Shown here: positions 26,807-60,521 of the stretch, in pieces
Numbering within the stretch: position 1 is the stretch's first letter
Layout of the letters: each line of letters begins with the position of its first letter
From: Euryarchaeota archaeon SM23-78
GTDB lineage: Archaea; Nanobdellota; Nanobdellia; Woesearchaeales; SM23-78
Assembly: GCA_001595785.1 (NCBI GenBank)
Contig: LSSJ01000038.1
Coordinates: forward strand, 3,020-67,019
Length of the DNA: 64,000 bases
Direction: 5' to 3'
Program-made: the position numbers and the translations under genes
The notes under the pieces: generated by a model
Databases searched by the model: none
Seen by the model: the letters and a program-made list of their open reading frames with translations, nothing else
What the model was told of the DNA's origin: nothing

Positions 26807-28702
26807 ATGAAAAAATCCCAGATAACCATGTTTGTAATCCTTGGCATGGTCTTGTTAATAGGATTTATAATTCTTACTGCTATTATACGCAACACCAGCC
26901 CCCCTAAAGGTAATATTCAGGAGATTCTTAAGCAGTTGCAAACAGGCAGTGTAAAGAACCACGTGACTACTTGCATACTACAAACATCTATGGATGGACT
27001 TGAAAGCCTGGGTGCTAATGGAGGAGTGATATATAATTTTGAGGCAGGCACCATTCCTTTTGAGGATAAAATATTAGGGAGGGATTATCTTAATTACACA
27101 TATCTTAATAAACCTTATTTTGTGGATTATGCTTTGAAAAGGAACACCCTTTGTGAGAATGTTAGTTATAAGATTCCTGATTATCCATGCCTAGACACGC
27201 CTTTTAACAGGCTTACCTTTATATATAATGAGGAGTGTTTATTCAACTCTTTCTACTCTGCTTATGACGGCTTCTTTGGTCAGAATAATATGAGCAAACT
27301 GTGCTATATTGCTCGTGAATCCACTTGCGAAGGATATGCAAAAGGCATAGAACTAGCTCTGACCTTGCAAAAACAGTTAGAGGATTATATTGCAAACACC
27401 CTGCCTTTATGTATTGACCTTTCTGCTTTTTCAAGCAGATTAGACGCTAATATAACTGTAGAAGCAGAACCTGTTGTGGAATCCACGATTCATAACTCAG
27501 ACATCCTAGTGGTTGTTAAGTACCCTGTAAAAATTAATTTTAAAGGACAAGACCCAATAACAACAGTGGTTGATTACCAAGTCAACCTTAATATTAGGCT
27601 GGGCTTGATGTATAACTTTATATATAATCTGTATTCCAGGGATTCAAAAAACATAGACTTTAATCTTAATAATGAATTTATTAGTTCTTCTTTTTGGAGG
27701 CAAGGATTAGAGCTGAAAAAGATTAATAATCCTTGCACTACTTGCCCTCGACCTTATTATCATGATGATATTGTTGAGGTGCTTGACAGGAGTTCTATGG
27801 TAAAGGGAAGGCCTTTCTTGTTCAGAACAGCTGTTGAGAATAGGAAACCTGCTCTTGACAAGCTAGAAGATGTTAATATTGACTTAAAAAACACAAACTT
27901 TGTTAATATACGTCTAAATGGTTATGACCCTGATGATACAGGGTTAACATATTATTTCTTGTCTCTTGGAAAAGGAGAAGTCCAGTGTGCTGGCGCAGGA
28001 GGCCTTCCTGCAGGAGCAGTTCCTAGTGGTGGTACTGGTTGGTGTGAGAGTGATGCAAGAGTGTCAGGGGAAAAAGGAGAGCTAGTTCACCCAGGACTTT
28101 TGTGGATGCCTATTGACAGAGTAGATATTGGTTCACATGAAGTAGGAGTCCTTGTTATAGATGATAGTGGGTTGTTTGATTATCAGTTCTTTAGGATTAA
28201 TATTACTGACTCAAGCATGAATAATCCTCCTAGTGAGCAGTGTATTGATGAGTGCATCCTAGAAGCATGCTCTGATTATGCAGGAGAAGCAGACCAATGT
28301 AAAGCTCATTGTTATCATCCTAGCTGTCAGCTAGAGCTGTGTGATGTTACTAGTATTAAGGCTTCTGGTAAGAATCCTTATAAGGACTGTTCAATGTGGT
28401 GCTTTCATGCAGCAAATGCATGTAATATCTGGTGTGATGAGCATTATGTTGGTCCAAAATGCTTTCCTCCTGGCGATAATGTGAACAAAAAAAAGTGTAG
28501 ACAATGCGCATATGGCATTATGCACTCAGGAGAAAGAGAAAAACATGTTGATTGCTCTACCATAAATTCAAAGGCTGCCTGTATTAATAACATGCCTAAT
28601 TGTTTTTGGGTGGAAGAGGAACATAATAATTTTGTAGGTGCTTGTTTTAATGATACTTCCTTAAACAATACAAAATTTCGTGCTTATATAATTACTGAAT
28701 AG
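26807..28702 (+). CDS. Cysteine-rich surface protein (631 aa) with pilin-like class III signal peptide
   Basis: The N-terminus MKKSQITMFVILGMVLLIGFIIL matches the KK[GAS]Q-hydrophobic pattern. A central Ig/cadherin-like segment follows (NGYDPDDTGLTYYF...IGSHEVGVLVIDDSGLFDYQFFRINI). The C-terminal ~120-aa Cys module is shared with the 1905-aa protein. Confidence 0.8.
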   Translation: MKKSQITMFVILGMVLLIGFIILTAIIRNTSPPKGNIQEILKQLQTGSVKNHVTTCILQTSMDGLESLGANGGVIYNFEAGTIPFEDKILGRDYLNYTYLNKPYFVDYALKRNTLCENVSYKIPDYPCLDTPFNRLTFIYNEECLFNSFYSAYDGFFGQNNMSKLCYIARESTCEGYAKGIELALTLQKQLEDYIANTLPLCIDLSAFSSRLDANITVEAEPVVESTIHNSDILVVVKYPVKINFKGQDPITTVVDYQVNLNIRLGLMYNFIYNLYSRDSKNIDFNLNNEFISSSFWRQGLELKKINNPCTTCPRPYYHDDIVEVLDRSSMVKGRPFLFRTAVENRKPALDKLEDVNIDLKNTNFVNIRLNGYDPDDTGLTYYFLSLGKGEVQCAGAGGLPAGAVPSGGTGWCESDARVSGEKGELVHPGLLWMPIDRVDIGSHEVGVLVIDDSGLFDYQFFRINITDSSMNNPPSEQCIDECILEACSDYAGEADQCKAHCYHPSCQLELCDVTSIKASGKNPYKDCSMWCFHAANACNIWCDEHYVGPKCFPPGDNVNKKKCRQCAYGIMHSGEREKHVDCSTINSKAACINNMPNCFWVEEEHNNFVGACFNDTSLNNTKFRAYIITE

Positions 28703-28852
28703 AAAATTAAAGAAAATTAAAAAAAGCAAAACTCATAAAAACGCATATATAAAAGACACACATATTAAAGCCAAAAATTAATTATCAACAATCAAAACAA
28801 AAAGATTTATATATTTACAAAAGGAAAGCAAGAATAAAAAAGGTGGATGAGT

Positions 28853-31828
28853 ATGGTTTATAAAAAGCACATGGTATTGTTAATATTTAGTATCATATTA
28901 TTCTTATTTATTCCTGCTCTTGTAAGTGCTGGCTGCTGTATTTATCAGACCCTAGGGAGCAGTTGTGAGAACAAAGCCAGTGAAGCTCAGTGCACCACAA
29001 CCCCTCAATTATTTGTAACTGATGATTGCACTGACAGACCAGAATGTGTTACTGGGTGTTGCTGTCTTTCTGATATTGGATTAATTGATGTTGGAAGCAC
29101 CAATTACTCCTGTGTTTTTACTTTTATTCCAAGCCCTTCTATTAGTCCTGGTGATAATTGCTCTTGTGCAATATCTACCTATTCTATTTCAGGAACCATC
29201 TATAGAATGACAGGAGGCTATGTGTCTGGTGCAATTGTGAGTGCCGCAAGCATATCAACCACTTCTGCTACTAACGGAGCTTATACCATAAACAATGTGC
29301 CTGAAGGAGATAGTATCACAGTGGCTGCTCATAAAACATCCGAGGGGTGTGCACCTAATAGTGTAACTATTGACCTACATCAGGACAGAACAGGCATTGA
29401 TATTAATCTTAACTGTGAGTGCACACCAGGTGTTTGTGACCCTAATAATAATGCCTATTGTTTATCAAGCAAAACATGGAAAATCTATGATTTAACCAAT
29501 ACATCACAGAAAGACGAGTACTGTCTTAGGTGTGGCTTAGATGACCCTGCTGATTGCGGAGCACCAGCAGAGTGTGTAAGTGGTGATGGAAAGTGCCCTG
29601 TAACTTGCAGCCCAAATGTTGATAGCCCCAAGTACGATTCTGATTGTGTGTGCAGCATGACTCCTAACCGGGCTTGTCCTCGTTGGTGTACCAAGGATAA
29701 TGATGCAGACTGTGCTGCTTATGCAGCTGTGTGCGGAGATGGATTAGTAACCTATCCTTATGAGACTTGTGAAGATAATCCTCAAACAGGACAACTAAGT
29801 CTGTGCAGCCCTAATGATTGCACTAACCCAGGAGAATCAGGTGAGTGTAATTGTGTTGGTTTATCAGCCTGTGGTAATTATATAATAGAATCAGGAGAAG
29901 ATTGTGAGATAGGAATGAAATGCCCAGATGGAAGTGATTGCTGGGATTGCTCCTGTGGCACGCCTCAGTGCCAGGGCAGCGCAATGAATCCTAGTGCTAC
30001 AGCAAGCTTTGATTCTAGTGCAAACGAAATTCTAGTTGAGTGGTCTGTTCTTAGCACTTGTAAAGCAAATGTGCTTTACTATTCTGTGTTTAAGTGTGAA
30101 AAAACACCGAGTTTTGATTGTTCAAGCAAAAGCATGTTTTCGCCATTCCGTCTTAACATACCTAAGTATCAATTTAATATAACAGAGAGTTCTGTTCCTT
30201 CAAATTCTGAATTCTGCTATGTGGTTAATGCTACTTATGCTGGCGGAGAAAAAGGAACGTCTAGTATTAAGTGTGTTAGCACAGGCCATCCTTATTGCAT
30301 GAATGTTCATCCTGATGAGTTCTGCATGAATAATGTGAGGAGCAAGTGTGATGCAGATGATAATATTCAGCCAATAGAGGATTGTAACCCTGACAAGTTT
30401 TGCATGGGACCAAATAGGGATGGCAAGACTTGGTGCTCAGATATAGACGTATGTGACATGTGCAATGGCCTCTACGGCATGTTCTCTAATATTGATTTAA
30501 AAGTCAATGTTTTGGAAGGAGGTGTTATAAGACCTAGGTATTGCCATCCTGGCGCAGGCAGGTATGTAGTAGAGGGTTGTTATCTTGACAGAACAAAAAC
30601 CTTGTTCAGTGCCTTTGATTACTGCTCTAATATTGTAAGTTGCTATGATTATAAATCACAAGAAGCATGTGAAGATAATGCAGATCCTTGTGGAAAAAAT
30701 CAGGATTGTGAATGGGTGTGGTTAGATAACTCTTATCATGAACTAGGAGGAATATGCAGACCTAATGCTCGTGAATTACAGACCTGTGAGCTATGTGATA
30801 ATAAGGATTATAACTGGATAACCCCTGCTTGCACCCCTGAGGTGTGTGCCTTGTTTGGAGATGAGTGCAAGTACCAAGGAATGTTTGCTAACCCAACATG
30901 CACTAAGAAATCCACGCTTGCTTGTATTGACTATACCACACAACAAGAGTGTATAGGAGGAACCGCAGTACATGTGAATGCGGTATATAATAGTAGTGGT
31001 GCCAGGACAGGAGGAACGCACCAACTCACACCTAGCAATGACAAGTTTGGACTTGGAAAATGTTATTGGCATGCAGTCAATAAATGGTGCTTAAGAAACG
31101 CTGATAATTATCCTGAGAATAACCAAGGCACCTATGGTCACGACTGTCCTCTTAATCGCAGAGATTGTGAATCAGACTTTATTAATCCTGAAACCATTAT
31201 TCTGCAATCTGGTTTTAGTCTTTACCCTGCAAATGTAAGAATAGAGTATACTGTGAATGATGATACCTTTCCTAGGAAGGACATCAAGACCTACTTTGGT
31301 TTAGTGCCTGCAGGCACACCTTGTTATCCAGACCAACTAGTTAGTGGCGGAGCCTTTCAAACCCTGGTAGAGGATGATGGAGATAACCTGCCTTATATAG
31401 TATGCTATTATTCAGAAGACTTTGCAAAAAACCTAGAACTCGTGAAGTCATTCCCTATAAATGTTGATGCAAACCCGCCAGTAATTACTATTACTTCGCC
31501 AACAGAGAGCGAGTTCAAAACAGCATCAGGCACCGTGGTGCTAAAAGGAATTACATCAATCGATACAATGAATCTGTGTACTTATACCCATGGTTCAAGC
31601 ACAAAGACCTGTATTAACACCTGCTTTTACGGACAGACGCCTTGTATAAATGAAGTAACAGGAGAATTCAACATAACAGTTAGTGTTCCTGCAAACGGGG
31701 CCTATGATGTGTTGTTTGATGCAGAAGACCGTGCAGGTAACCAGGTTGTTGGCCTGAGTCTGTTAGCTATTTATCGTAATGATACCCAGCCAAGAAAACC
31801 AATTATTATAATAGAGGGTGTACAATAA
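28853..31828 (+). CDS. Cysteine-rich secreted protein (~990 aa) with CarboxypepD_reg-like domain
   Basis: The track start is 28847, but ATG 28853 lies 6 nt after AGGTGG. Sec signal ...IPALVSA|GCC. The segment ISGTIYRMTGGYVSGAIVSA...TNGAYTINNVPEGDSITVAAHK is carboxypeptidase-regulatory-like. CGDG and CTPGVCD Cys motifs are shared with the next gene. Confidence 0.8.
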   Translation: MVYKKHMVLLIFSIILFLFIPALVSAGCCIYQTLGSSCENKASEAQCTTTPQLFVTDDCTDRPECVTGCCCLSDIGLIDVGSTNYSCVFTFIPSPSISPGDNCSCAISTYSISGTIYRMTGGYVSGAIVSAASISTTSATNGAYTINNVPEGDSITVAAHKTSEGCAPNSVTIDLHQDRTGIDINLNCECTPGVCDPNNNAYCLSSKTWKIYDLTNTSQKDEYCLRCGLDDPADCGAPAECVSGDGKCPVTCSPNVDSPKYDSDCVCSMTPNRACPRWCTKDNDADCAAYAAVCGDGLVTYPYETCEDNPQTGQLSLCSPNDCTNPGESGECNCVGLSACGNYIIESGEDCEIGMKCPDGSDCWDCSCGTPQCQGSAMNPSATASFDSSANEILVEWSVLSTCKANVLYYSVFKCEKTPSFDCSSKSMFSPFRLNIPKYQFNITESSVPSNSEFCYVVNATYAGGEKGTSSIKCVSTGHPYCMNVHPDEFCMNNVRSKCDADDNIQPIEDCNPDKFCMGPNRDGKTWCSDIDVCDMCNGLYGMFSNIDLKVNVLEGGVIRPRYCHPGAGRYVVEGCYLDRTKTLFSAFDYCSNIVSCYDYKSQEACEDNADPCGKNQDCEWVWLDNSYHELGGICRPNARELQTCELCDNKDYNWITPACTPEVCALFGDECKYQGMFANPTCTKKSTLACIDYTTQQECIGGTAVHVNAVYNSSGARTGGTHQLTPSNDKFGLGKCYWHAVNKWCLRNADNYPENNQGTYGHDCPLNRRDCESDFINPETIILQSGFSLYPANVRIEYTVNDDTFPRKDIKTYFGLVPAGTPCYPDQLVSGGAFQTLVEDDGDNLPYIVCYYSEDFAKNLELVKSFPINVDANPPVITITSPTESEFKTASGTVVLKGITSIDTMNLCTYTHGSSTKTCINTCFYGQTPCINEVTGEFNITVSVPANGAYDVLFDAEDRAGNQVVGLSLLAIYRNDTQPRKPIIIIEGVQ

Positions 31829-31862
31829 CTTTTATCCTTAATTTTGTTATGTGAGGTGTTTA

Positions 31863-34800
31863 ATGATAAAAAAGAGGTTTACCTTAATTGGAATCCTGCT
31901 CTACTTTTTGATAGGGCTGCTATTAATTCCTTTAGTTTTCTCAGTAATAAATATTGTTGTTGATCAAAACAGAGTGAAGATCACTGCAATTTATGAAGGA
32001 GATGTGGGTTTAGAAAAGGCTAACATAACTGATTTAATAGGAGACCAACTTTTTTATATATATCCTACAAATATAACTGTACAAAAAATATATCAGTCTG
32101 GTAATACAACTCTTAGATTTGGCGGCACAGGTTGTCCTCTTGGCTACTCTCCTTTAGGCATGCCCTATAGACCTTGTTTTATTTTAAACCCAGGGGATTA
32201 TACTTTCTCTGTTTCTGGTAGAACTGCTTTTGGAACTGTGAGGATTGATAATCCTGAGGAGTGTGATGGATATAATCTTAGCAATACTAATTGTAGTACT
32301 TACACAGATCCAAATACAGGAAAGCAACCCTTTGGAGGAGGAACCCTTTCTTGCTATGACTGCTCCTTTGATGTCTCAGGCTGTTTGGTGTGTGAGCCTA
32401 ATCATTGCTCTATTTGTGATAACCAGATTTGTTCTGGTAATGGAAAACAGTGGACCACGATTAATTATACTTGGATGTGCGGTCCAAAAGACAGTAATCT
32501 TGGGACTCTAGGCACAAGCTGTACTCCAGGGGTATGTGATGTTTTTGCAGGCATGGTGTGTGATTCAAATGGGTTCTGGACCAGCACAGGCTTTTGCACT
32601 TATTGCTCTGATGAGGATAGCTCTTGTTATGGTTCATGCACTCCAGGTAACTGTGATATTAGTGCTAAGGCTTTTTGTGACCAAGGCAGCTGGGTTACTC
32701 CTTTAACCAATGATTACTGTGCTGTGTGTGGCAACTATGATAGTGAGTGTCTTGGTGGTTGCTCAGGCAGTGCGTGTGATACTAAGAATAACAAGTATTG
32801 TAGTAGTGGAAGCTGGGTTTCTCCTAGCAGCCTGAATGATTATTGTCAGCGCTGTGGTCAAGTAGATGCTGATTGTGGCATTCCCATATGTATTGATGGA
32901 ACCTGTGATATTTGCAATGATGCTAAGAAGTACTGTAATAATGGGGTGTGGGAGAGTCAAAATTATTGTGATTATAGTAGGTGTGGAAGTTATGATTCTT
33001 GGTGCAATAGAAGCTGTCAACACGGCACATGTGATACTGTTGCTCATAAGTATTGTAGGTATAATCTCTGGGAATCTGACTGGGACACTTATTGTAATAA
33101 TTGTAAATCTCAAGATAGTTCTCTTTACTGCTTAAACCCAGAGGACTGTGGTAATGGAGTGATAGACAGATGGAATGTTAGTGGCTTTTGGGTTGGAGAA
33201 GCATGTGATAAAAAAGGACCTAACCTGAACGGAGCTAGCTGCCTAACCTGGCCTCAGTTTGTAGGAGGCACTCTTGGATGTGCTGATAATTGTTTGAGCT
33301 TTGACAGGAGCAGCTGCATCCTTAGGAACGAGTCTTGTGGTGATGATATTATCCAAGGAGATGATATGTGTGATGGAGATGACCTTGGAGGTAAGGATTG
33401 CACAGACCCAATCTTTAATTTTATGGGAGGCACTCTTGGATGCACCAATGATTGCAAGTATGATACTAGTAACTGCATTCCTTTTCCTGAGTGTGGTGAT
33501 GCTGTTGCTAACCAGGATTCTGAGGACTGTGATAAAGATGATTTAAGAGGAGAAACTTGTGAGTCTTTGGGTTATGCTGGTGGATCTTTAAAGTGTGATA
33601 ATGATTGTAGTTATGATAAATCTGGTTGTTATGGTGGTGTAAAGGTGTGTGGTGATGGTGTTGTTCAGAAGCCTAATGATGCTGGTTTTAATGAGCAGTG
33701 TGATATGGCTGATTTAAATAATATGGATTGTAAGGATTTTGATGGCTATACTGGTGGCACCTTGGTTTGTAATGGTGATTGTACTTATGATTACACTGGT
33801 TGCTCAGGCGGAACCTTTAAATGCAGTGATAGAGTAAAAAATCAGGAGTCAGAGGATTGTGACTATCTTGACCTAGGCGGAGAAACATGCGAATCATTGG
33901 GTTATGATAATGGTACCCTGGAATGTTTTAGTGATTGTACTTTTGATAAGTCTAGGTGCTATTTTAATCCTGGTTCAAAGGTGTGCGGGGATGGTACAGT
34001 TCAACAGCCAAATGATGCTGGTTTTAATGAGCAGTGCGATGTGGCTGACCTAGATGGTGCGAAGTGTAAGGACAAGGATGATTTTACAGGAGGCCTTCTG
34101 ACTTGTCATGGAGATTGTACTTTTAATTATGATATGTGCACAGGAGACAGCGGTGCTGTTTGTGGAAATAACATCCTAGAACCAGGTGAGCACTGTGACG
34201 GAGATGTTGAGGATGATGACTGTACATCTATTGGTAAGAAAAACTTTATTGGAGGAACCCTTAGCTGTTCAGATAACTGTGAGTTTGATACAAGTGATTG
34301 CATAGTAAACATAACTCCTCCTGTGTGTGGTGATGGAATAGTAAATGGCTATGAAGGGTGTGATGGCACTAACCTTGCAGGGCTTACCTGCGGATACTTT
34401 ACCCAGTATGTTAGTGGCACTCTTAAGTGCAATCAGAACTGCACTCTTGATTTTTCTAATTGTTTAAAACAAGGACAAACAGCTGCTCATTGCGAGAATA
34501 ATGTGACAGACGAGGACGAGACAGACCTTAACTGCGGAGGATTATCCTGCCCTGGATGTCCAAATGGTAAGAGGTGCTTGAATCATTCTGATTGTATATC
34601 AAACTATTGTTTATCAAATATATGCACAGAAGCAAGCTGCTCTGATACAATAAAAAACGGTCTTGAAACAGATGTAGATTGTGGAGCCAACTGTCCTTGT
34701 TGTGGCTTAGATATGAGTTGTAATATTAATTCTGACTGTTGCGGTCTTTTCTGCCACCCAGACACTCGCAAATGCGATGTTCCTTCATGTGATGATGGTT

Positions 34801-35750
34801 ATAAGAATGGTGAGGAAACAGATATTGATTGTGGGGATGGTTGCCCAGAAAAATGCGAAGTCGGTCAGGGTTGCGTGTCTCCTAATGATTGTAAATCAGG
34901 TTATTGCGACTTAGGGGTGTGCGCAGTTAACCCAACCCTTGACACAGACATGGACGGAATGCCTGACAAATGGGAGCTGAAATATGGCTTAGACCCTAAT
35001 AATCCTGATGATGCAAACCAAGACATGGACGGTGATGGTTATTCTAATCTTGACGAATATTTAGATGGAACAGACCCAACAGATCCAAATGACCCTCTGC
35101 CTAAGAAGAAGCACACCTTGCAAATCATTTTCTTAATAATAGGGTTGCTCTTAATGCTTGGCAGCATAGGCTTTTTGGTGTACTCAAGAATGGTGCTTGT
35201 ACCCCAGCAAAGAGCTGCTACTAGAAAAGCCCAGCCTCAAAGACCAATGCCCATGGCACAAAGAAGGCCTTTGGTAGGAAGAGGACAACCCAGACCTGGG
35301 AGAAGGATGCCTTTGGCAAGAAGAGGCTTGACCCAGAGACAGGCTTCAAGAAAGAGTTTGTTAAAAGGCTTTGAAAAAGAAGATAAGACAAAAGCACTAG
35401 GTGTTAAAAGGCCTGAAGCAAAACCTTTTGAAAAGAAACCTGTTAAACCAGTACAACCTACAAAGAAAGTAGCAAAAAAACCTGCGGCAAAACCAGCGCC
35501 TGCAGAAGAGTTTATTCCTTTATCAGAACTAGGAGCAAAGCAAAAACCAAAAGAAGAAAAAAAAGAGGCTCCTAAAAAACCTCTTGGCGGAGCATTTGAA
35601 AAACTAAGAGAATTATCAGGAGCCCAGAAGAAAAAGGATGTAAATAAAGAATCAAAACAAGCTGAGGAAGAAGCTGGAAAGGAAACTGGGAAGGAAACAG
35701 GTAAAGAGGCTAAGAAAGCAGAACCCAAAAAAGAAGAAGCTGATAAATAG
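31863..35750 (+). CDS. Repeat-rich cysteine-rich surface protein (~1295 aa) with C-terminal TM anchor and basic cytoplasmic tail
   Basis: The track start is GTG 31851, but ATG 31863 lies 4 nt after GAGGTG (MIKKRFTLIGILLYFLIGLLLIPLVFS). Domains in order: about 7 'C..C...DS.C...C.PG.CD....C....W' units, 8 CGDG-type units, 3 'NG.ETD.DCG' units, Asp-rich thrombospondin-type-3-like Ca-binding repeats, TM IIFLIIGLLLMLGSIGFLVY, and a ~190-aa K/P/R-rich tail. Confidence 0.85.
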   Translation: MIKKRFTLIGILLYFLIGLLLIPLVFSVINIVVDQNRVKITAIYEGDVGLEKANITDLIGDQLFYIYPTNITVQKIYQSGNTTLRFGGTGCPLGYSPLGMPYRPCFILNPGDYTFSVSGRTAFGTVRIDNPEECDGYNLSNTNCSTYTDPNTGKQPFGGGTLSCYDCSFDVSGCLVCEPNHCSICDNQICSGNGKQWTTINYTWMCGPKDSNLGTLGTSCTPGVCDVFAGMVCDSNGFWTSTGFCTYCSDEDSSCYGSCTPGNCDISAKAFCDQGSWVTPLTNDYCAVCGNYDSECLGGCSGSACDTKNNKYCSSGSWVSPSSLNDYCQRCGQVDADCGIPICIDGTCDICNDAKKYCNNGVWESQNYCDYSRCGSYDSWCNRSCQHGTCDTVAHKYCRYNLWESDWDTYCNNCKSQDSSLYCLNPEDCGNGVIDRWNVSGFWVGEACDKKGPNLNGASCLTWPQFVGGTLGCADNCLSFDRSSCILRNESCGDDIIQGDDMCDGDDLGGKDCTDPIFNFMGGTLGCTNDCKYDTSNCIPFPECGDAVANQDSEDCDKDDLRGETCESLGYAGGSLKCDNDCSYDKSGCYGGVKVCGDGVVQKPNDAGFNEQCDMADLNNMDCKDFDGYTGGTLVCNGDCTYDYTGCSGGTFKCSDRVKNQESEDCDYLDLGGETCESLGYDNGTLECFSDCTFDKSRCYFNPGSKVCGDGTVQQPNDAGFNEQCDVADLDGAKCKDKDDFTGGLLTCHGDCTFNYDMCTGDSGAVCGNNILEPGEHCDGDVEDDDCTSIGKKNFIGGTLSCSDNCEFDTSDCIVNITPPVCGDGIVNGYEGCDGTNLAGLTCGYFTQYVSGTLKCNQNCTLDFSNCLKQGQTAAHCENNVTDEDETDLNCGGLSCPGCPNGKRCLNHSDCISNYCLSNICTEASCSDTIKNGLETDVDCGANCPCCGLDMSCNINSDCCGLFCHPDTRKCDVPSCDDGYKNGEETDIDCGDGCPEKCEVGQGCVSPNDCKSGYCDLGVCAVNPTLDTDMDGMPDKWELKYGLDPNNPDDANQDMDGDGYSNLDEYLDGTDPTDPNDPLPKKKHTLQIIFLIIGLLLMLGSIGFLVYSRMVLVPQQRAATRKAQPQRPMPMAQRRPLVGRGQPRPGRRMPLARRGLTQRQASRKSLLKGFEKEDKTKALGVKRPEAKPFEKKPVKPVQPTKKVAKKPAAKPAPAEEFIPLSELGAKQKPKEEKKEAPKKPLGGAFEKLRELSGAQKKKDVNKESKQAEEEAGKETGKETGKEAKKAEPKKEEADK
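33147..34463 (+). repeat. Array of 8 tandem ~45-55-aa CGDG...GGTL.C..DC.(F/Y)D.S.C modules
   Basis: Units 3-4 and 5-6 are a recent two-unit duplication. For example, AATGATGCTGGTTTTAATGAGCAGTG occurs identically near 33670 and 34010. The motif resembles the 'myxococcus cysteine-rich repeat' class (CGDG....E.CD). Confidence 0.75.
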
Positions 35751-47876: not shown

Positions 47877-47987
47877 TATGTTTCACCTCTAATTTATCAA
47901 TCGGTTTTTATCTTTAAATAACTTTTGATTAATTATTATCTATTAATAATAACCTTTAAATACCTGCTTTTGCTTTTCTTATTGATT

Positions 47988-48941
47988 ATGGGTAAGGTTT
48001 TGGGAAAAAAGAGGTTGTATGAGTTCCTAGAAAAGGTTTCTAAAGGTGCTGACTTAATTGCTCCTGTTAAAACAGATACGCTTAGGTTTGGAATTATTAA
48101 GGATTTTAATGACATCTGCCTTGAGGGCAGGCCTCTTTTTCCTCTTAAGAAGTTCTTTTCACCTGCAAAACAAGACTTGTTCAGGTTGAACCTTGGTGAA
48201 AAAGACGAGCCTTTCAAGGAAGAGAAAATAATGATTAAGCCCAGGGTTATATTCGGCGGTAGACTATGTGATTTTAACGGCTTATTAAAGCTTGATAAAC
48301 TTTTCTTGTCAGAAGAATTCCAGGATGATTATTACAAGGAAGCCAGGGAAAAAACCTTGCTGATTGGCATTAACTGTGACCCACCTCCCAGCAAGTATTG
48401 TTTTTGCGAGTCAATGGATTTAGAGAAATATTATGATTTATTCTTTCATGACATGGGAGATAAGTATTATATTGAGTCAGGCAGTGCTAAAGGACAAGCC
48501 TTAATAATGGATTTAGAGGATTATGACTTCTTGATGCCTAATATTCATTGTGAAAAAAAGCTGGTTAGGAAAGAGCTTGCTCAGCACTATGAAGACCCTG
48601 CTTGGGAGCAAGAGAATGAGAAGTGTCTTAGCTGTGGAAAATGCACTTCTCACTGCACTACTTGTCTCTGCTTTGATATGCTTGATGAGATGCAAGCTAA
48701 TCTTAAAAATGGTAAGCGCTCCAAGGAATGGGATTCGTGCCAGTTTGAAAACTTCACTCTTGTTGCAGGAGGTCTTGTTTTCAGAAAGGAGCGGCTTCCC
48801 AGGTTTAAACACAGGATTTATCATAAACTGCAGTACTTTAGGGAAAAGTTTGGCATGGACATGTGCACTGGGTGTGGCAGATGCATTGAGGCTTGTCCTA
48901 GGTTGATTGATTTTACAGAGGTGATTAATAAGTTCAAATAA
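47988..48941 (+). CDS. hydB: Sulfhydrogenase (group 3b NiFe hydrogenase) beta subunit, 4Fe-4S protein
   Basis: ATG 47988 (MGKVLGKKRLYEFLEK); the track start 47925 adds an unlikely hydrophobic leader. Cluster motifs are CLSCGKCTSHCTTCLC and CTGCGRCIEACP (AsrA-like). Confidence 0.75.
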   Translation: MGKVLGKKRLYEFLEKVSKGADLIAPVKTDTLRFGIIKDFNDICLEGRPLFPLKKFFSPAKQDLFRLNLGEKDEPFKEEKIMIKPRVIFGGRLCDFNGLLKLDKLFLSEEFQDDYYKEAREKTLLIGINCDPPPSKYCFCESMDLEKYYDLFFHDMGDKYYIESGSAKGQALIMDLEDYDFLMPNIHCEKKLVRKELAQHYEDPAWEQENEKCLSCGKCTSHCTTCLCFDMLDEMQANLKNGKRSKEWDSCQFENFTLVAGGLVFRKERLPRFKHRIYHKLQYFREKFGMDMCTGCGRCIEACPRLIDFTEVINKFK

Positions 48942-48953
48942 AGAGAAGGAAAA

Positions 48954-49754
48954 ATGTTATTCAAATCAGAAACTTTCAAGATTGTGAAAAAAGAGAAGCA
49001 AACAGAGGATGATTGTTTGTTTAGGCTAGAGCCTGTTGGCAAGAAAAAAATAAAGCTTAGTTATGAACCAGGCCAGTTCTTTCAAGTATCTGCTCCTGGA
49101 ATTGGAGAAGCACCTTTCTCTGTTTGTTCATATGATAAAGAGTTTATTGAATTCAACATCCGAGGATTAGGAGATGTTACTAATCATTTATTAAAGCTAG
49201 AGCCAAGCGATAAAATATGTCTTAGAGGTCCTTATGGCACCAGCTATCCAATGGAACAATTAAAAGGTAACAGCCTGGTGATTATTGGTGGAGGCACAGG
49301 CGTGGCTCCTCTTAGAGGGGTGTTAAAGTATCTTGAGAAGCACAGAGCTGATTATGATAGAGTGCATCTCTTCTTTGGTTTTAGAGATCCTAATGAAATC
49401 TTGTTTAAGAAGGATATGGAGCAGTGGAACAGAATCTTTGACCTAAACCTGACTGTTGATAAAGCACCTGATAGTTATACAGGCAAGGTTGGTTTAGTCA
49501 CTAAGATTGTTGAGGAGTCAGGTCTTAATAACAAGAAAAAAGCAGTTATGATATGCGGTCCTCCAATAATGATAAAGTTCACAATCCTGACTCTGGAGAA
49601 GCTTGGATTTCACCATGACCAAATCTTTGTGAGCTTTGAGAGAAGAATGAAGTGCGGGGTTGGCATGTGCGGTCACTGCATGATATCAGGTTTGTATGTT
49701 TGCAAGGATGGTCCTGTTTTTAGATATGATAAGGTTAAAGGGTTGCATGAGTAG
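48954..49754 (+). CDS. hydG: Sulfhydrogenase gamma subunit (FAD/NAD(P)-binding, 2Fe-2S)
   Basis: Ferredoxin-NADP-reductase-like fold (GQFFQV, GGGTGVAPL) with the C-terminal motif CGVGMCGHC. Confidence 0.8.
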   Translation: MLFKSETFKIVKKEKQTEDDCLFRLEPVGKKKIKLSYEPGQFFQVSAPGIGEAPFSVCSYDKEFIEFNIRGLGDVTNHLLKLEPSDKICLRGPYGTSYPMEQLKGNSLVIIGGGTGVAPLRGVLKYLEKHRADYDRVHLFFGFRDPNEILFKKDMEQWNRIFDLNLTVDKAPDSYTGKVGLVTKIVEESGLNNKKKAVMICGPPIMIKFTILTLEKLGFHHDQIFVSFERRMKCGVGMCGHCMISGLYVCKDGPVFRYDKVKGLHE

Positions 49755-49862
49755 AATTAATAAGTCTGTCCGGCGTTTGAGAACTCGATACTTATTGTTT
49801 AAAATTTTGAAGTTAAAATAAAAATAATTATTTGCTCGCTCGCTTTGCTCGCGAGGGAAAAG
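49755..49862 (+). promoter_or_regulatory. Conserved ~110-nt intercistronic module (hydG-hydD spacer)
   Basis: Reads AATTAAT..GTCCGGCGTTTGAGAAC, then an AT-rich stretch with GTTTAAAAT and AAATAAAAAT, then GCTCGCTCGCTTTGCTCGCGAGGGAAAAG and ATG. The same layout and boxes occur in the porD-porA spacer. Confidence 0.6.
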
Positions 49863-50666
49863 ATGAAAAAGACAAAAAAAGCATCAAAAGCAAAAAAGCC
49901 TAGAGTAGGCATCCAGAGCATTACTGGGTGTGCTGGCTGCCAGTTAAGTTTATACTTCATAGAGGATGTCCTGCTTGAACTGTTTGATAAGATAGAGTTG
50001 GTTGCTGCTCCAATGATTAAGGGTAAGAATGAAGAAGAAAATTATGATATTTTATTTGTTGAGGGCAGTGTTAGTTCAAAAGAAGACTTGGAAAATCTGC
50101 TTAAGTGGAGAAAACAAGCTAAGTTCTTGATTGCTCTGGGGGCGTGTGCTTCTCATGGTTGCATGCAGTCAATGAAGCACATGATGCATGAAGAAGAAGT
50201 AGAAGCAGCTGTTTATAATAAGTTTCCTTCTGATAAAAGATTAAAGCCAATTACTGCTGTTCCTTTACATAAGCATGTTCAAGTTGATTTTTACATCCCT
50301 GGTTGTCCTCCTGACAAAGAGGAAATTGAAAGGGTGCTTAAATGGCTTTTACAAGGCATAAAACCAAGGGTTTATGACAAGGCTGTTTGTCATGAGTGCA
50401 GTTTAAAAGAAAATTATTGCTTGTTAGATCAAGGGATAGAATGCTTAGGGCCTTTGATGAACGGTGGATGCAAAGCCTTATGTCCTGATTATAATCATCC
50501 CTGTACTGGATGCAGAGGCATGCTTGATGATGCTAATCTTAAGTCAGGCAAAGAGATATTAAGGGATAAAGGCTTTGACCCTGACTTAATGATAAAGAGG
50601 ATGACTAAATATAATACTTTACAGTTCATGGAGTTTGAGAGTAAGCCTAAGGAAGAGAAAAAGTAA
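49863..50666 (+). CDS. hydD: Sulfhydrogenase delta (small) subunit
   Basis: ATG 49863 follows GAGGGAAAAG. GCAGCQLS, GACASHGC and PGCPP are NiFe small-subunit/NuoB-like motifs. Confidence 0.85.
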   Translation: MKKTKKASKAKKPRVGIQSITGCAGCQLSLYFIEDVLLELFDKIELVAAPMIKGKNEEENYDILFVEGSVSSKEDLENLLKWRKQAKFLIALGACASHGCMQSMKHMMHEEEVEAAVYNKFPSDKRLKPITAVPLHKHVQVDFYIPGCPPDKEEIERVLKWLLQGIKPRVYDKAVCHECSLKENYCLLDQGIECLGPLMNGGCKALCPDYNHPCTGCRGMLDDANLKSGKEILRDKGFDPDLMIKRMTKYNTLQFMEFESKPKEEKK

Positions 50667-50672
50667 AAATGA

Positions 50673-50734
50673 CAAAAATAAAATTTTTGAATTCACAAAA
50701 GCAAAGCTTTTGGGACTCAAAATCAAAGATTTTG
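50673..50734 (+). repeat. Three consecutive 16-17-nt hairpins CAAAANN-AA(A)-NNTTTTG in the hydD-hydA spacer
   Basis: CAAAAAT-AAA-ATTTTTG (50673-50689), CAAAAGC-AA-GCTTTTG (50696-50711) and CAAAATC-AAA-GATTTTG (50718-50734). The inner two positions co-vary. Confidence 0.7.
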
Positions 50735-50763
50735 TTGTTTCAAATAAAAAACAAGATTTGAAA

Positions 50764-52047
50764 ATGCCAAGCATAAACTTAAATCACATCTGCAAAGTAG
50801 AAGGCCATGGTAGCTTGCACGTTGAGATAAAAGGCAGTAAGTTGATAAAGTGTAAGCTTGGTACTGTTGAAGGGGCTCGTTTCTTTGAAGGAATTGTTAA
50901 GGGTAAAAGACATGATGATGTTCAGGAGATTACTTCTAGGATTTGCGGTATCTGTTCTTGTGCTCATACAGTTGCAAGCTTGCAAGCCCTTGAGAATGCT
51001 ATGGGTGTAAAGGTTTCTGAGCAGACCAGGAGGTTGAGAGAACTCTTATCTATTGGCGAAAGGATTAGGAGTCATGCAACCCATCTTTACTTCCTTGCTC
51101 TTCCTGATTATCTTGGCTATGAATCAGCACTAGCAATGGTTAGCAAGTACAAAAAAGAGGTTCTCAGGGCTTTGCACCTGATAAAGTTGGGTAATAACAT
51201 GGTTCAAAGGATTGGGGGTAAAGAAATGCATCCCTTTACCAGTGTTATTGGAGGCTTTACTCATGTGCCTGATAAAAAAACTGTTAAGTATTTGCAAGCT
51301 GAGTTAAAAAAAGCTCTTCCAGAAGCAATATCAACTGCAAAGCTGTTCTTGAAATTAAAGCAACCAAAATTTGAAGCTGAAAAAGATTATCTTGCTTTAA
51401 ATCCAGAAAAAGACTCTCCGCTTATATCAGGAGACCTCATCTCTCTCAGCAGCCTGAACATAAAGCCAGCAGAGTACGACAAATTCATTGATGAGGAAGT
51501 AATGCCTTACTCAACAGCCAAGTTCTCAAAACTAAATGGAAAACTCTTTTGTGTTGGCAGCCTTGCAAGGATTAATACGAATTATGATAAGCTAAGCCCT
51601 ACAGCAAAGCAACTGTTTAAACAAGCAAAACTAGAATTACCAATACATAATCCTTATTATAACAATTTAATGCAGGCAATAGAGCTTGTTCACTGGGTTG
51701 AGAGGGGTTATGCTCTGCTTGACTATGATTTTAGGTTTGAGGGGCTTCCTAAAGTAAAGGCAAGAAGGGGTAGGGGAGTAAGTGCTGTTGAGGCTCCTAG
51801 AGGAATACTTTTCCACGACTATACTATTAATGAAAAAGGAGTTGTTGAGAAATGTAATATAATAACACCAACAGCTCAGAATCTTAGAGCAATAGAGGAT
51901 GATGTTAGGCTGTTGATTGAGCAAATGCTTAAGCAGAAAAAGAAAAAGTATAAGATTATCCTTGAAGTGGAAAAGCTTATAAGAGCTTATGACCCTTGCT
52001 TTTCATGCAGTGCTCATTTCTTAAAAGTAAAATGGGTTAAGAAGTGA
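50764..52047 (+). CDS. hydA: Sulfhydrogenase alpha (NiFe large) subunit
   Basis: ATG 50764 (MPSINLNHICKVEGHG). The N-terminal RICGICSCAH and C-terminal DPCFSCSAH Ni-binding motifs are followed by a short cleavable tail. Confidence 0.9.
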   Translation: MPSINLNHICKVEGHGSLHVEIKGSKLIKCKLGTVEGARFFEGIVKGKRHDDVQEITSRICGICSCAHTVASLQALENAMGVKVSEQTRRLRELLSIGERIRSHATHLYFLALPDYLGYESALAMVSKYKKEVLRALHLIKLGNNMVQRIGGKEMHPFTSVIGGFTHVPDKKTVKYLQAELKKALPEAISTAKLFLKLKQPKFEAEKDYLALNPEKDSPLISGDLISLSSLNIKPAEYDKFIDEEVMPYSTAKFSKLNGKLFCVGSLARINTNYDKLSPTAKQLFKQAKLELPIHNPYYNNLMQAIELVHWVERGYALLDYDFRFEGLPKVKARRGRGVSAVEAPRGILFHDYTINEKGVVEKCNIITPTAQNLRAIEDDVRLLIEQMLKQKKKKYKIILEVEKLIRAYDPCFSCSAHFLKVKWVKK

Positions 52048-56237: not shown

Positions 56238-58268
56238 TTATCCTTTGCCACACCATCTCTTCAGCTCTTCCCATCTAGTATCAATATTCTTTTGGAGCTG
56301 TTCAATGATGTGTTGGTTTTCTGGCTTCATTAAATGCCTGAACCTTTTCTGCATCTTAAGCCATTCAATTACTGTCTTTTTATTATCGCCAGGGTCATAG
56401 TTCAGTATCCACTTACCATTATCCACTTCAAATAAAGGCCAGAAACAAGTGTCAACTGCCATCTTAGCAAGCTTTAAGGTTAAGTGCATTGGATATTTCC
56501 ATCCAGGAACACAAGGACTTAGCACATTGATAAAGGCAGGTCCTTTGACTGCAAAGGCTTTTTCTGCTTTTCTAACCAAATCCATATAATTATGAGGGCT
56601 GGCTTGAGCAACATAAGGGATATGATGACCTGCAACCACTGCTGTCAAGTCTTTTTTGAACTGTTCTTTACCTTTATGCACTTTTCCTACTTGAGATGTA
56701 TTGGTCCATGCACCAAAAGGAGTGCTGCTACTTCTCTGAATGCCTGTGTTATGCACCACTATACCGTCAGCCACAAAGTTGTGCTCGCCTTCAACTCTTA
56801 AGTCTAAAGTTGGTTGTTCCTTTACAAACTTAACAGAAATTATTTTTTCAGAGCTAAACCATTCATTATCTGCTAAGAAGTCTCTTTGTTTTGTTTGAGA
56901 AAGATATTTTTTAATGTCAGGTTGTTTCTTTTTACTAAAACAGATGTATCCATAACTGGAATCTTCTAATAACTCTCTGTAAACTACGAGGCTTCCCTTC
57001 TTTTTCTTTTGTTGATGTATCTTTCCCACTCTGTAAGTCATTGTTTGTAGCAATAATCTTAGTGTTTTTAACAACTCAATACTTGCAGATACATATCTGT
57101 GGCTTCTTCCTATTTTGTATCCATCTGAAAGCATTAATCCTTTGAGAAAGGCTTCTTTTTCTTCTTGTGGTAAGGTAAAAAGCCAGCTTGGAATGATTTT
57201 ATTCTTTGCTCCATTACCAAAACCAAGCGAATCAATAAATTTAGCTAGATTTACTGAGTATATGTAAAAATAATTTTTATCTTTTTCAGATAATTCTTTT
57301 CTAAATATTTTTCTATAAACCTCTTTTAATCTCTTTCTTGCTTTTGTGTTTCTTGGGAGAGCAAAACCTGTTTCTGCTTTATGAGTTCGAATCCACCCAT
57401 CGCCTACAAAGAGCCCTAAGAATTCCATTAATGCAGGAGAACTCTTCTTCGGGATCTTAACCTCATTAATCTTGTTTACCTTGTAATCTCCTTTTTTAGA
57501 TAGCTTAATAGCAGGGAAATTATAACTCTTGCCTTGTCTCAGTTTTTTTAACACTATTACCTCATCATTAGGTTTTAGTTGTGCTAGTGTTTTCCAGACT
57601 AACTTATTCTCTTTTTTACTTCTGCTTCTTTTAACAACAAGGAAAGGATGGTTTGAAGTGGCTTTTATTGTGTGGTGTAAGGTGCTCAACTCATAAACTT
57701 TCTTGACACCATTATCAAAAATACCAGTGCACCTTTTCAAAACTAGGCTTCCATTTTTCTGGTTAAAAGCATAAACTTTTTCTCCTATTTTTATCTCTGT
57801 AATTCTTTTCAAACCTTTTTCTGTCATTATAAGAGCGTCTAAACTTAAACAATTCATGTAGCCTTCATTATCAACGCATACATAAACAAAGTTATGTCCT
57901 CTTTCTAAGGCTCCTGAAAGTGACTGGAGTCCTATGTCATAGGTTCCTCCGTCCCCACCAAAAGCAAGGAATTTTATTTCTTTCTGAATCTTACCTTTCT
58001 TTTTCAAAACTTCATAAGCAGCTTCTGCTCCACTAATAGTAGCTGCAGCATTCTCAAAAGCATTATGAATCCAAGGAACATTCCAAGCAGTATATGGATA
58101 GATAGTTGTGCTAACCTCTAAGCAGCCAGTAGCAGTGGCTACCACGATTGGATCTTTGGTGCCTCTCATAACAGCTCGAGCAATAATACTAAGACCACAA
58201 CCAGGGCAAAGCCTATGACCAGGTGCTAATCGTTCTCCGGTTAATGCAAGTTCTCTAATGTTTGGCAT
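56238..58268 (-). CDS. porB: Pyruvate (2-oxoacid):ferredoxin oxidoreductase beta subunit, interrupted by an intein
   Basis: The N-extein has CPGCG and the TPP motif [10 protein letters not shown]...[10 protein letters not shown]. The C-extein resumes [15 protein letters not shown].... Joined exteins total 308 aa, a normal PorB size. Confidence 0.9.
56748..57851 (-). mobile_element. LAGLIDADG-type intein (368 aa) in PorB
   Basis: Starts at the Cys codon 57851-57849 (N|[13 protein letters not shown]) and ends at the His-Asn codons 56753-56748 (GIVVHN|T). Two dodecapeptide motifs are present: [10 protein letters not shown] and [10 protein letters not shown]. The +1 residue is Thr. Confidence 0.9.
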
Positions 58269-58269
58269 T

Positions 58270-59454
58270 TTATTCTCTCACTCCCAAATATCTCACTCTT
58301 TCACCAAGATTACCTTTCTTTACTTCTTCTAACTCATTAAACACTTTTTTTATCTGTTCTAAATCCAGTTCTCTTCCTCCTAGTCCATAAATGTAATCAA
58401 TAATATTTGGTTTTTCTTTTATCTCATGGAATGAGCTTCTTATCTCACTAAAGATAGGTCCTCCAAAGGCTCCAAAGCTATCGCTTCTATCAAGCACAGC
58501 AACTGCTTTTATCTTTCCAAGCTTTTCAACAACCATTTCATTAAGCCAAGGCCTGAACACTCTCATCTTTAACAAACCGACTTTTTGTCCTTTTGCTCTT
58601 AGCTCGTCAACAACCACTCTTACTGTTCCTGCACTGCTATTAGCGCACACAATAACTTTTTCAGCGTTTTCAAGCTTGTAGCCTTCAAAAAAGTCATATT
58701 TTTTTCCTGTTATTTTACCAAATTCATCAAACACTTCTCTTATAACACGCTTTGCATTCTGCATTGCTAGTACTTGTTGTCTTTTATGCTCAAAATAATA
58801 ATCAAACAAGTCAAGAGGACCATAAGTCACTGGTTTATCAACATCAAGCAAAGGATAATGACCTGTATGTTCTCCTACAAAATTCTTAACAGTCTCATCA
58901 TCAAGGATTTCTGCTGTTTCAACACTATGACTGGTAATGAATCCATCTTGGCAAACCATTACTGGCAATAAGACATCTTTGTGCTCACCAATTCTTACTC
59001 CCATAATTGTGTTTTCATAAGCTTCTTCTCCATTCTCAGAATACATTTGAATCCATCCAGTGTCACGACAACCCATGCTATCAGAATGGTCACAATGAAT
59101 ATTAATAGGAGCGCTTAATGCCCTGTTCACAACGTTCATAACTATTGGCAGCCTGGTGCTAGAAGCAATATAAACAATCTCCCACATTAATGCTAAACCA
59201 TTAGCACTGGTTGCTGTCATTGCACGAGCACCAGCAGCACTAGCCCCCACACAAGCACTCATAGCACTATGCTCAGACTCAACAGTAACCAAATCAGTAT
59301 CAATAATACCATCAGCAACAAACTGGGAAAAAGAATGCATGATATTAGTCTGAGGAGTAATAGGATAAGCAGCAACAACATCAGGATTAATCTGACGCAT
59401 AGCCTCTGCTGTGCACTGAGCTCCTGTGTATGCTTTACGAGTTTTTTGTACCAT
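58270..59454 (-). CDS. porA: Pyruvate (2-oxoacid):ferredoxin oxidoreductase alpha subunit
   Basis: 394 aa with AYPITPQT and [20 protein letters not shown], typical of PorA. The stop is 1 nt from the porB start. Confidence 0.9.
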
Positions 59455-59568: not shown

Positions 59569-59955
59569 TTAGTCTTTGAACTCCTTTTCCTCTTTCATCT
59601 CAATTGCTTTGAAAGGGCACTCCTCTGCGCAGATACCACAACCCTTGCAATAATCCAAATCAAAGCCTCCGAAGTTGCCAAGATTAGCTTTATCACTCAC
59701 TCCTTTTTTGCCTTTGTTAGGATCATCAACCCCTCCGACCTTTACGCAGGAATCAGGGCATACCATCCAGCAAATCATGCAATTAGTGCATTTCTCAGGT
59801 ATATGTATTGGTCTGAAAGTCCTCCAATCACCTGTTTTGTACTCCTTGCTATTACCTGCTTCAAGGATTTTTCCTCCTATAGGTATCTCTTTCCAATTCT
59901 TTAATTTCTGCTTATGCTCTTCATGATGTGTGTGCTGAGAGTTTGCTTCTGTCAT
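59569..59955 (-). CDS. porD: Pyruvate:ferredoxin oxidoreductase delta subunit (2x4Fe-4S ferredoxin)
   Basis: CTNCMICWMVCP and CKGCGICAEECP cluster motifs. N-terminal His-rich stretch. Confidence 0.85.
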   Translation of the reverse strand: MTEANSQHTHHEEHKQKLKNWKEIPIGGKILEAGNSKEYKTGDWRTFRPIHIPEKCTNCMICWMVCPDSCVKVGGVDDPNKGKKGVSDKANLGNFGGFDLDYCKGCGICAEECPFKAIEMKEEKEFKD

Positions 59956-60521
59956 ACATTAACCTCATTATATGCTCTTTCAAAAGCCTTAACATTCTTT
60001 TCAGCAAGGTCTTTGCCAAGGAGATATTCAAAATGCTTGAACATATGATTTTTTAGGAATTCAAAATCAACAATATTAGTTGCTTTTTCAACAACACCCA
60101 GCATTGCAGTGTTAGTCACTGCTCTTCCCAGCTCTTCAAGAGCAATCTTAATAGCATCTATAACAATGATTTTACCCTTAAAATCAACCACGCTCTTAAC
60201 TTCATTAACAGATTGATTAGCATTAATAATAAGAAGTCCATCATCATCCAAACCCTCTGTCACAGGAATACTCTTAAGCAAGGTCTGATCAACAACCACA
60301 ACAACATTAGGATTAGTAACACCAGAATGAAGATAGATCGGCTTATCACTAATCCTAGTATAAGCCTTAACCGGCGCTCCCTGTCTCTCAGCACCATATT
60401 CAGGAAAGCTCTGAACAAATTTACCTTGCTCAATAGCAGCTTCTGCTAAGAGAGCAGCAGCTGTTTTAGCACCCTGGCCACCCCTACCATGAAACCTTAT
60501 CTCAAAGATGTCTTTGGACAT
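59952..60521 (-). CDS. porG: Pyruvate:ferredoxin oxidoreductase gamma subunit
   Basis: IRFHGRGGQGAKTAAALLAEAA...FPEYGAERQGAP is the gamma-subunit signature. There is a 4-nt overlap with porD. Confidence 0.88.
   Translation of the reverse strand: MSKDIFEIRFHGRGGQGAKTAAALLAEAAIEQGKFVQSFPEYGAERQGAPVKAYTRISDKPIYLHSGVTNPNVVVVVDQTLLKSIPVTEGLDDDGLLIINANQSVNEVKSVVDFKGKIIVIDAIKIALEELGRAVTNTAMLGVVEKATNIVDFEFLKNHMFKHFEYLLGKDLAEKNVKAFERAYNEVNV

Follow-up and report, generated by a model that had tools for sequence, protein, structure and literature searches.

A probable class-1 intein in the active-site loop of a PorB-like oxidoreductase subunit from a woesearchaeal contig, and its relatives in uncultured archaea and bacteria

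The window considered here, a stretch of 64,000 nucleotides of contig LSSJ01000038.1 from Euryarchaeota archaeon SM23-78 (Woesearchaeales), contains a gene, porB, for a PorB-like beta subunit of a pyruvate ferredoxin oxidoreductase (POR) that is interrupted in frame by what is very probably an intein. The porB precursor open reading frame (ORF; 56238..58268), the last in a porG-porD-porA-porB operon, encodes 676 aa plus a stop without interruption and lies, like all the parts of porB described below, on the minus strand. Its N-extein (57852..58268; precursor residues 1-139) is followed by an insert of 368 aa (56748..57851; residues 140-507), made up of a Hint splicing domain with a LAGLIDADG homing endonuclease inserted in it, and then by the C-extein (56238..56747; residues 508-676 and the stop), which starts at Thr508. 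The insert begins with CLSLDALI and ends with ADGIVVHN, and is flanked by CVDNEGYMN before it and TGIQRSS after it. Its GC content is 0.329 vs 0.407 for the exteins, and its removal in silico leaves a contiguous PorB of 308 aa. An earlier note on this DNA had described a 368-aa insert at 56748-57851 that starts with Cys, ends with VVHN, is followed by Thr and contains two LAGLIDADG motifs; coordinates and sequence match exactly, and both motifs were located.

The first conserved block of the insert (57813..57851) carries the catalytic Cys1, which is Cys140 of the precursor and provides the position-1 nucleophile of a class-1 intein. Next come a non-canonical cysteine, Cys41, within KRCTG (57723..57737) and the TxxH block (57636..57668), which reads T65-S-N-H68 and in which Thr65 and His68 are invariant. 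The first LAGLIDADG motif (57390..57431; intein residues 141-154) reads FVGD151G and the second (57117..57158; intein residues 232-245) MLSD243G, with Asp151 and Asp243 as the catalytic residues. A further cysteine, Cys304, lies in YGYICFS (56934-56954). Block F and the C-terminal block (56748..56813) together hold Asp350, His357, the penultimate His367 and the terminal Asn368, the insert thus closing with VVH367-N368. The Thr at +1, the splicing nucleophile, opens TGIQRSS (56727..56747), the rest of which is a conserved block of the host.

The Pfam model Intein_splicing scores 66.8 bits on the insert alone and 64.5 bits on the precursor (residues 147-507), against a cutoff of 35.8, and LAGLIDADG_3 scores 29-31 bits against a cutoff of 22.5. 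The NCBIfam models for the N-terminal splicing region (TIGR01445) and the C-terminal splicing region (TIGR01443, 26.8 bits vs a cutoff of 15.6) are also above their cutoffs, and the Pfam TPP_enzyme_C match on the precursor breaks off at residue 140. An AlphaFold model of the intein, built on 12 homologues (pLDDT 86, pTM 0.84), has as its best matches in the PDB the endonuclease-containing inteins TliVMA (7qsu, TM score 0.74), PhoVMA, PI-TkoII, PI-SceI and PI-PfuI. The modelled fold spans both domains of PI-SceI, PI-PfuI and TliVMA, whereas mini-inteins match the Hint part only. The Hint fold is therefore indicated both by Pfam Intein_splicing and by a model matched to solved inteins, and the support from Hint, intein and LAGLIDADG profile hidden Markov models (HMMs) for which the earlier note had called was found at curated cutoffs. 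All this argues strongly that the porB insert is a canonical class-1 intein with a monomeric, two-motif LAGLIDADG homing endonuclease, inserted in frame between Asn139 and Thr in the loop that binds thiamine pyrophosphate (TPP) and substrate.

The position of this loop can be read from solved homologues. Across the junction, the spliced 308-aa protein aligns gap-free to the beta chain of a four-subunit pyruvate:ferredoxin oxidoreductase (PFOR; 9bt4_C, E 2.7e-81), to that of oxalate oxidoreductase (OOR; 5c4i_C) and to intein-free orthologues (P0121-P0123), so that the motif DNExYMN/TG(I/V)QRS is restored as the earlier note had anticipated. The GDG of the TPP/Mg-binding motif (residues 105-107; 57948..57956) is followed, 27 residues past its last Gly, by Asn134 of DNEGYMN (57852..57872), the Mg ligand that closes GDG-X26-N and that aligns to the Mg-binding Asn118b of the Sulfolobus (St) 2-oxoacid:ferredoxin oxidoreductase (OFOR). 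Asn139, the -1 residue just before the intein, aligns to Asn996 of the D. africanus enzyme (DaPFOR) and to Leu123b of StOFOR1, a position that lines the substrate pocket, moves when pyruvate binds and influences substrate specificity (PMC5020499). The window protein thus has the pyruvate-type residue of DaPFOR 996 in its pocket, and the insertion lies 5 residues beyond the Mg-binding Asn134, within the invariant DNExYMN/TGxQRS block. The earlier note had put the intein inside the TPP-binding motif; the loop is indeed the same conserved one, but the site is not strictly inside GDG-X(n)-N, being 5 residues past N134 and after N139. On either side of it, C21, C24 and C49 of the N-extein and C586 of the C-extein align to chain positions 811, 814, 839 and 1070 of DaPFOR (1b0p). 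We take these to be Cys812, 815, 840 and 1071 of the literature on the D. africanus structure (Chabriere 1999), the ligands of the proximal [4Fe-4S] cluster.

The TPP motif GDG...N, the four cluster cysteines and the context of a four-subunit operon are those of a PorB. The NCBIfam PorB equivalog (NF008819, cutoff 405 bits) nevertheless gives only 358 bits for the precursor and 380 for the spliced protein, and PorB is still the best-scoring family, with VorB at 301. The intein as the sole cause of the missed cutoff was ruled out, the spliced sequence also being below it, and the shortfall is attributed to divergence of the lineage rather than to damage. The host is assigned to PorB from its best hit, its operon, the homologues of solved structure and the residue in its pocket; strictly, it is PorB-like by best hit.

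Conservation was assessed on 206 distinct homologous inteins. Cys1, Thr65 and His68, Asp350, His357, His367 and Asn368 are present in all of them, while the LAGLIDADG residues Asp151 and Asp243 are kept in 96% and 98.5%, respectively. Cys41, which lies outside any canonical intein block, is as conserved as Cys1 and Asn368 (206/206), and Cys304 is found in 95%.

The PorB intein is not a one-off, the same allele being present in hundreds of public metagenome-assembled genomes (MAGs) from both prokaryotic domains. With the full precursor as the query, at least 120 clusters of proteins of ~675 aa with the same architecture, and with the intein in an identical position in all of them, were found among 897 matches at E<=1e-5. 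A search of a protein-cluster database with the intein alone gave 73 matches at E<=1e-100, a figure unusable as a measure of prevalence since the word-based candidate step missed the ~675-aa proteins. When each GTDB species was represented by a single genome, at least 461 stretches were found to encode a relative of the PorB intein, and the results on loci given here cover the best-scoring 80 of these. All 80 have junctions of the form Y(M/Q/A)N/C...HN/TG at the same site, with Thr at +1, and an intein of 365-372 aa free of internal stop codons. According to the labels of the records, the archaeal hosts include Woesearchaeota/Nanoarchaeota, Heimdallarchaeota, Bathyarchaeia, Iainarchaeota, Aenigmatarchaeota, Micrarchaeota and Ca. 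Forterrea (a complete genome), and the bacterial hosts Omnitrophota, Cloacimonadota, Aerophobetes, Parcubacteria/Patescibacteria and Vermiphilus; the submitters' labels 'Methanosarcinales', 'Planctomycetia' and 'Clostridia' are doubtful. Among the best 80 loci, none is from a cultured organism, all being from MAGs or single-amplified genomes (SAGs). The closest relative, P0001 from a Woesearchaeota MAG, is 89% identical overall (94% in the exteins and 85% in the intein), which places the window in a DPANN archaeon. The PorB lineage forms a cluster at >=54% identity. In a library clustered at 50%, only a few representatives of it are left, and the next inteins outside PorB (in SufB, a T4-type portal protein, ClpP and subtilases) are at ~30-35%; this gap marks the PorB inteins as a distinct allele family.

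The site is not always occupied. Intein-free orthologues with 93, 90 and 89% identity to the exteins of the window lie in the same ppsA-porGDAB-ackA-pta-hydrogenase neighbourhood, and the earlier note's suggestion that intein-free alleles might exist was thus borne out in syntenic loci of relatives. The empty site of these orthologues reads ...TAYATGAAT/ACNGGAATHCAAAG..., and that of L001 and L002 ...GATAATGAAGGTTATATGAAT/ACTGGAATACAAAGGAGT..., the stroke marking the junction. A third state is represented by mini-inteins of ~160 aa (P0131, P0135), which belong to the same lineage and occupy the same site with the endonuclease excised. In a neighbour-joining tree of the exteins, the three allele states (full, mini and empty) are intermingled, down to the closest relatives: the full alleles of the window and P0001 pair with the empty P0121, and the full P0008 with the mini-intein allele P0131. 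Between distant hosts, it is the intein that is the better conserved, with 73-74% identity vs 41-48% in the exteins for Cloacimonadota and some Woesearchaeota loci (73% vs 41% in a VorB-like host of Cloacimonadota) and 70% vs 50% for Heimdallarchaeota. One distant host scores above the curated cutoff of VorB but below that of PorB, which suggests that the element crosses the boundaries between paralogues as well as those between domains. Interleaved allele states, empty orthologues and an intein more conserved than its distant hosts make up the classical signature of a homing cycle, and mobility of the PorB intein is in this way supported, if indirectly. In IMG/VR, the alignment of the inteins matched only unrelated ones, at <=30% identity, which gives no sign of a viral carrier.

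Both the splicing and the homing of this element can be pictured along textbook lines. Translation of the porGDAB operon would yield the 676-aa PorB precursor, in which the Hint domain would bring about an N-S acyl shift at Asn139-Cys140. The hydroxyl of Thr508 would then attack the thioester to give a branched ester, Asn507 would cyclise with the help of His506 to free the intein, and an O-N shift would leave the native 308-aa PorB. The unspliced precursor should be inactive, since its loop is broken and 368 residues stand between the fourth cluster cysteine and the other three together with the TPP/Mg motif. That POR activity would depend on splicing is a sound inference as far as the 64-kb window goes, although a second, intein-free OFOR may be encoded elsewhere in the genome. 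Once freed, the intein would act as a homing endonuclease that cuts intein-less porB or vorB genes at ...TAYATGAAY/ACNGGNATHCAR..., and repair from an occupied allele would copy the intein into the cut one. On this proposal, a single widespread lineage would cycle between empty, full-length and endonuclease-deleted states and would have been moved between distant OFOR beta genes in archaea and bacteria.

Several points weigh against this reading. Splicing and DNA cleavage are predicted for every member of the PorB intein lineage, as is the homing target, and an active endonuclease in the window's own copy is likewise a prediction rather than something to be asserted from its sequence. In a few homologues, a LAGLIDADG Asp is changed to Asn, and some copies are therefore probably endonuclease-dead. 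Degenerate copies may also be under-sampled, the 80 loci being the best-scoring ones. The signal of selection speaks for the reading but is coarse: dN is ~0.09-0.2 while dS is >1, in the splicing and endonuclease segments alike, and because dS is saturated (>1 and sometimes undefined), dN/dS is qualitative and only its direction, with dN far below dS, is used. An ungapped comparison of extein dN/dS for the distant loci L010 and L013 was invalid and was disregarded. Finally, the labels of MAGs are the submitters' own, and some of the cross-domain cases could be binning errors; the Omnitrophota, Cloacimonadota and Aerophobetes hosts do, however, recur in many independent assemblies.

One alternative is that the copy in the window is a vertically inherited relic late in the homing cycle, competent in splicing but with an inactive endonuclease and no longer mobile in its lineage. 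Such stages are predicted by the homing cycle, and the Asp-to-Asn variants and mini-inteins of relatives are what would be expected of them; moreover, among close relatives, it is the intein that diverges faster (85% identity to P0001 vs 94% for the exteins). Yet the window copy retains its two catalytic Asp residues within unimpaired G-D-G and S-D-G motifs, and in a comparison of its endonuclease segment with that of L005, dN (0.095) is far below dS (>2). We regard this alternative as rather improbable, and the preferred reading remains that of an intein with a complete and potentially active endonuclease.

Another possibility is that the intein still splices but now serves as a conditional switch, with the maturation of POR gated by redox state or the availability of cofactors. 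A disulfide between Cys1 and Cys41, formed under oxidation, might be one way to block splicing; the oxygen-labile enzyme would then reach maturity only in the absence of oxygen, and the intein would persist to the benefit of its host and not purely as a parasite. The invariance of Cys41 leaves a little room for this idea, and the high conservation of Cys304 is in keeping with it, as are the location of the intein in the active-site loop of an oxygen-labile Fe-S/TPP enzyme and the lack of degenerate copies among the best 80 loci. Conditional splicing has also been proposed to serve as a stress 'panic button' in other inteins, as discussed in the 2016 intein census (PMC4760082). However, the closest relatives have empty alleles roughly as often as occupied alleles, and mini-inteins occur, a pattern that fits selfish homing and not a fixed regulatory module. 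A gate of this kind is therefore unlikely, somewhat more so than a relic. If it were nonetheless true, the benefit to the host could help explain the spread and the intactness of the intein across DPANN, Asgard, the candidate phyla radiation (CPR) and Omnitrophota.

The last alternative, a non-splicing insertion, a pseudogenisation or an assembly chimera that leaves porB non-functional, is effectively refuted: nothing specific speaks for it beyond the low score of the precursor on the NCBI PorB equivalog model, which the spliced sequence shares and which is thus not due to damage, while the ORF is uninterrupted, every splicing residue is intact, an identical architecture is found in hundreds of independent assemblies from different sources, and purifying selection acts strongly on the exteins of alleles that carry the intein (dN 0.053, dS ~1.0), which also lends indirect support to the predicted splicing.

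In relatives, the same loop has attracted more than one intein. A segment of ~35 residues in the TPP/Mg/substrate loop holds three sites, namely, GDG(G)/(S/T)YDIG, YV/CYDNE and YMN/TG, and only the last of these is occupied in the PorB of the window. P0255, P0249 and L031 (Nanoarchaeota MAG JAHIMK010000007.1) have an unrelated LAGLIDADG intein inside the GDG motif, GDG(G/A)/CYS(E/N)DTEI...SLNGN/SYDIG, and also carry an intein at YMN/TG, which in P0255 is a mini-intein, and they thus have two each. The remaining site is occupied in L033 (MAG CAYHAE010000023.1, labelled Planctomycetia), which reads LYV/CLPPETEI...KFVISN/CYDNEAYMN/CLSTDSMI; here, two full-length LAGLIDADG inteins are split by an extein segment of 9 residues, and the first of them ends in Ser-Asn and not His-Asn. 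These extra inteins at the GDG and YV sites were confirmed by Pfam and are unrelated to the one at YMN/TG.

Directly upstream of porB and also on the minus strand are porA (58270..59454; POR_N and PFOR_II domains), porD (59569..59955; a ferredoxin-like subunit with two [4Fe-4S] clusters) and porG (59952..60521; the POR gamma domain), porB being the last gene of the operon. A gene for phosphoenolpyruvate (PEP) synthase lies upstream of the operon and is transcribed divergently from it; on the other side, downstream of porB, come pta, ackA and a cluster for a NiFe hydrogenase. The four hydrogenase genes (47925-52047, plus strand) resemble those of a sulfhydrogenase-type (group 3) NiFe hydrogenase, adjoin pta-ackA and por, and encode a 4Fe-4S dicluster protein, an NAD-binding/FeS protein, a small subunit and a large subunit. 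The adjacency of hydrogenase, pta-ackA and por is also seen in the syntenic intein-free loci.

The statement of the earlier note that DP2 (168-3824) and MCM (14433-16457, minus strand) are free of inteins holds, neither having a Hint or intein domain. An HMM of the PorB intein, run against the six-frame translation, found no second canonical intein in the window. A Hint domain of another sort does occur in an ORF of 1905 aa (19928-25645, plus strand), whose sole Pfam match is a Hint/PT-HINT domain of 133 aa at ~20810-21208. This domain, GGGG/CFLAGTKITM...TPEH...YNFEVEE...FAVHN/AKAIG, shows Cys1, TxxH and HN at its end, but its +1 residue is Ala, which points to a bacterial-intein-like (BIL) autoprocessing domain and not to a splicing intein. 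The giant protein that carries it in this DPANN archaeon is probably a surface protein. The giant ORF is followed on the same strand by a row of ORFs of 631, 993 and 1299 aa (26807-35750), which have essentially no Pfam matches, save for a sub-threshold CarboxypepD_reg in the second.

Although its mechanism would be a textbook one and its sequences are public by the hundreds, the PorB intein is apparently undescribed. Full-text searches of the literature turned up no paper on an intein in PorB or POR, probably because the element is confined to uncultured lineages. PorB is not among the top hosts in the 2016 intein census (PMC4760082), although a listing in its supplementary tables is possible. 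NCBIfam has models for intein-containing RtcB, GyrA and Tes, with none for PorB among the hits to the window protein. At least 461 stretches would place PorB among the commonest prokaryotic intein hosts.

Public annotation of these genes varies. The pipeline of the Joint Genome Institute (JGI) labels some of these genes '...beta subunit/intein/homing endonuclease', whereas NCBI names the intein-free orthologues 'pyruvate ferredoxin oxidoreductase' and the intein-bearing ones 'hypothetical protein' or 'LAGLIDADG family homing endonuclease'. Many of the NCBI gene calls, of ~537-541 aa, start at the Met of YMN/C (P0052, P0241, P0393-P0395, P0400, P0402, P0405 and others). In L008, the locus of P0052, the frame continues open upstream and codes for the N-extein, so that PorB has there been mis-called as truncated. 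With intein-bearing genes misnamed or truncated in this way, metabolic reconstructions from MAGs of DPANN, CPR and Omnitrophota may count POR as missing or defective. The PorB inteins are, besides, a large natural data set for the dynamics of the homing cycle, with empty, full and mini alleles, moves between PorB and VorB and across domains, and three clustered sites; and the debated question of whether inteins serve as environmental switches could be examined well on one that sits in the active site of an oxygen-labile central enzyme.

The census attributes ~75% of archaeal intein hosts to categories L and F, with replication, repair and nucleotide metabolism dominant and most hosts binding ATP; V-ATPase A and UDP-glucose dehydrogenase are in its list of the top 15 archaeal hosts (PMC4760082). 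The earlier note had presented a metabolic host as the exception, and PorB is indeed unusual, but there are precedents in V-ATPase A, UDP-glucose dehydrogenase, SufB and the intein-containing Tes model. The closest of these in structure are TliVMA and PhoVMA, from the V-ATPase A of Thermococcus litoralis and Pyrococcus horikoshii (7qsu, 7qss, 7qst), the best structural matches of the PorB intein with TM scores of 0.74 and 0.65 and Foldseek E-values of 8e-23 to 2e-18. Like it, they are archaeal class-1 inteins of similar size with an embedded LAGLIDADG endonuclease, in a host that belongs to energy metabolism and is not a DNA enzyme; unlike it, they occupy another site in a P-loop ATPase, PorB being without a nucleotide-binding P-loop, and identity is ~20%. 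PI-SceI (from yeast VMA1), PI-PfuI and PI-TkoII share with the PorB intein the combination of Hint domain and double LAGLIDADG endonuclease and, presumably, the mechanism of splicing and homing. They are, however, only 14-17% identical to it and larger (454-537 vs 368 aa). The SufB inteins (P0245, P0253, P0257), at ~31-33% identity, are among the nearest outside PorB and also have an Fe-S-related host that is not involved with nucleic acids; host and site differ, and the PorB lineage forms a cluster of its own. Finally, several independent intein sites in a short, conserved catalytic segment are also known from haloarchaeal MCM (PMC10643990) and from ribonucleotide reductase, but whereas these are enzymes of replication and nucleotide metabolism, PorB is a subunit of a TPP/Fe-S oxidoreductase.

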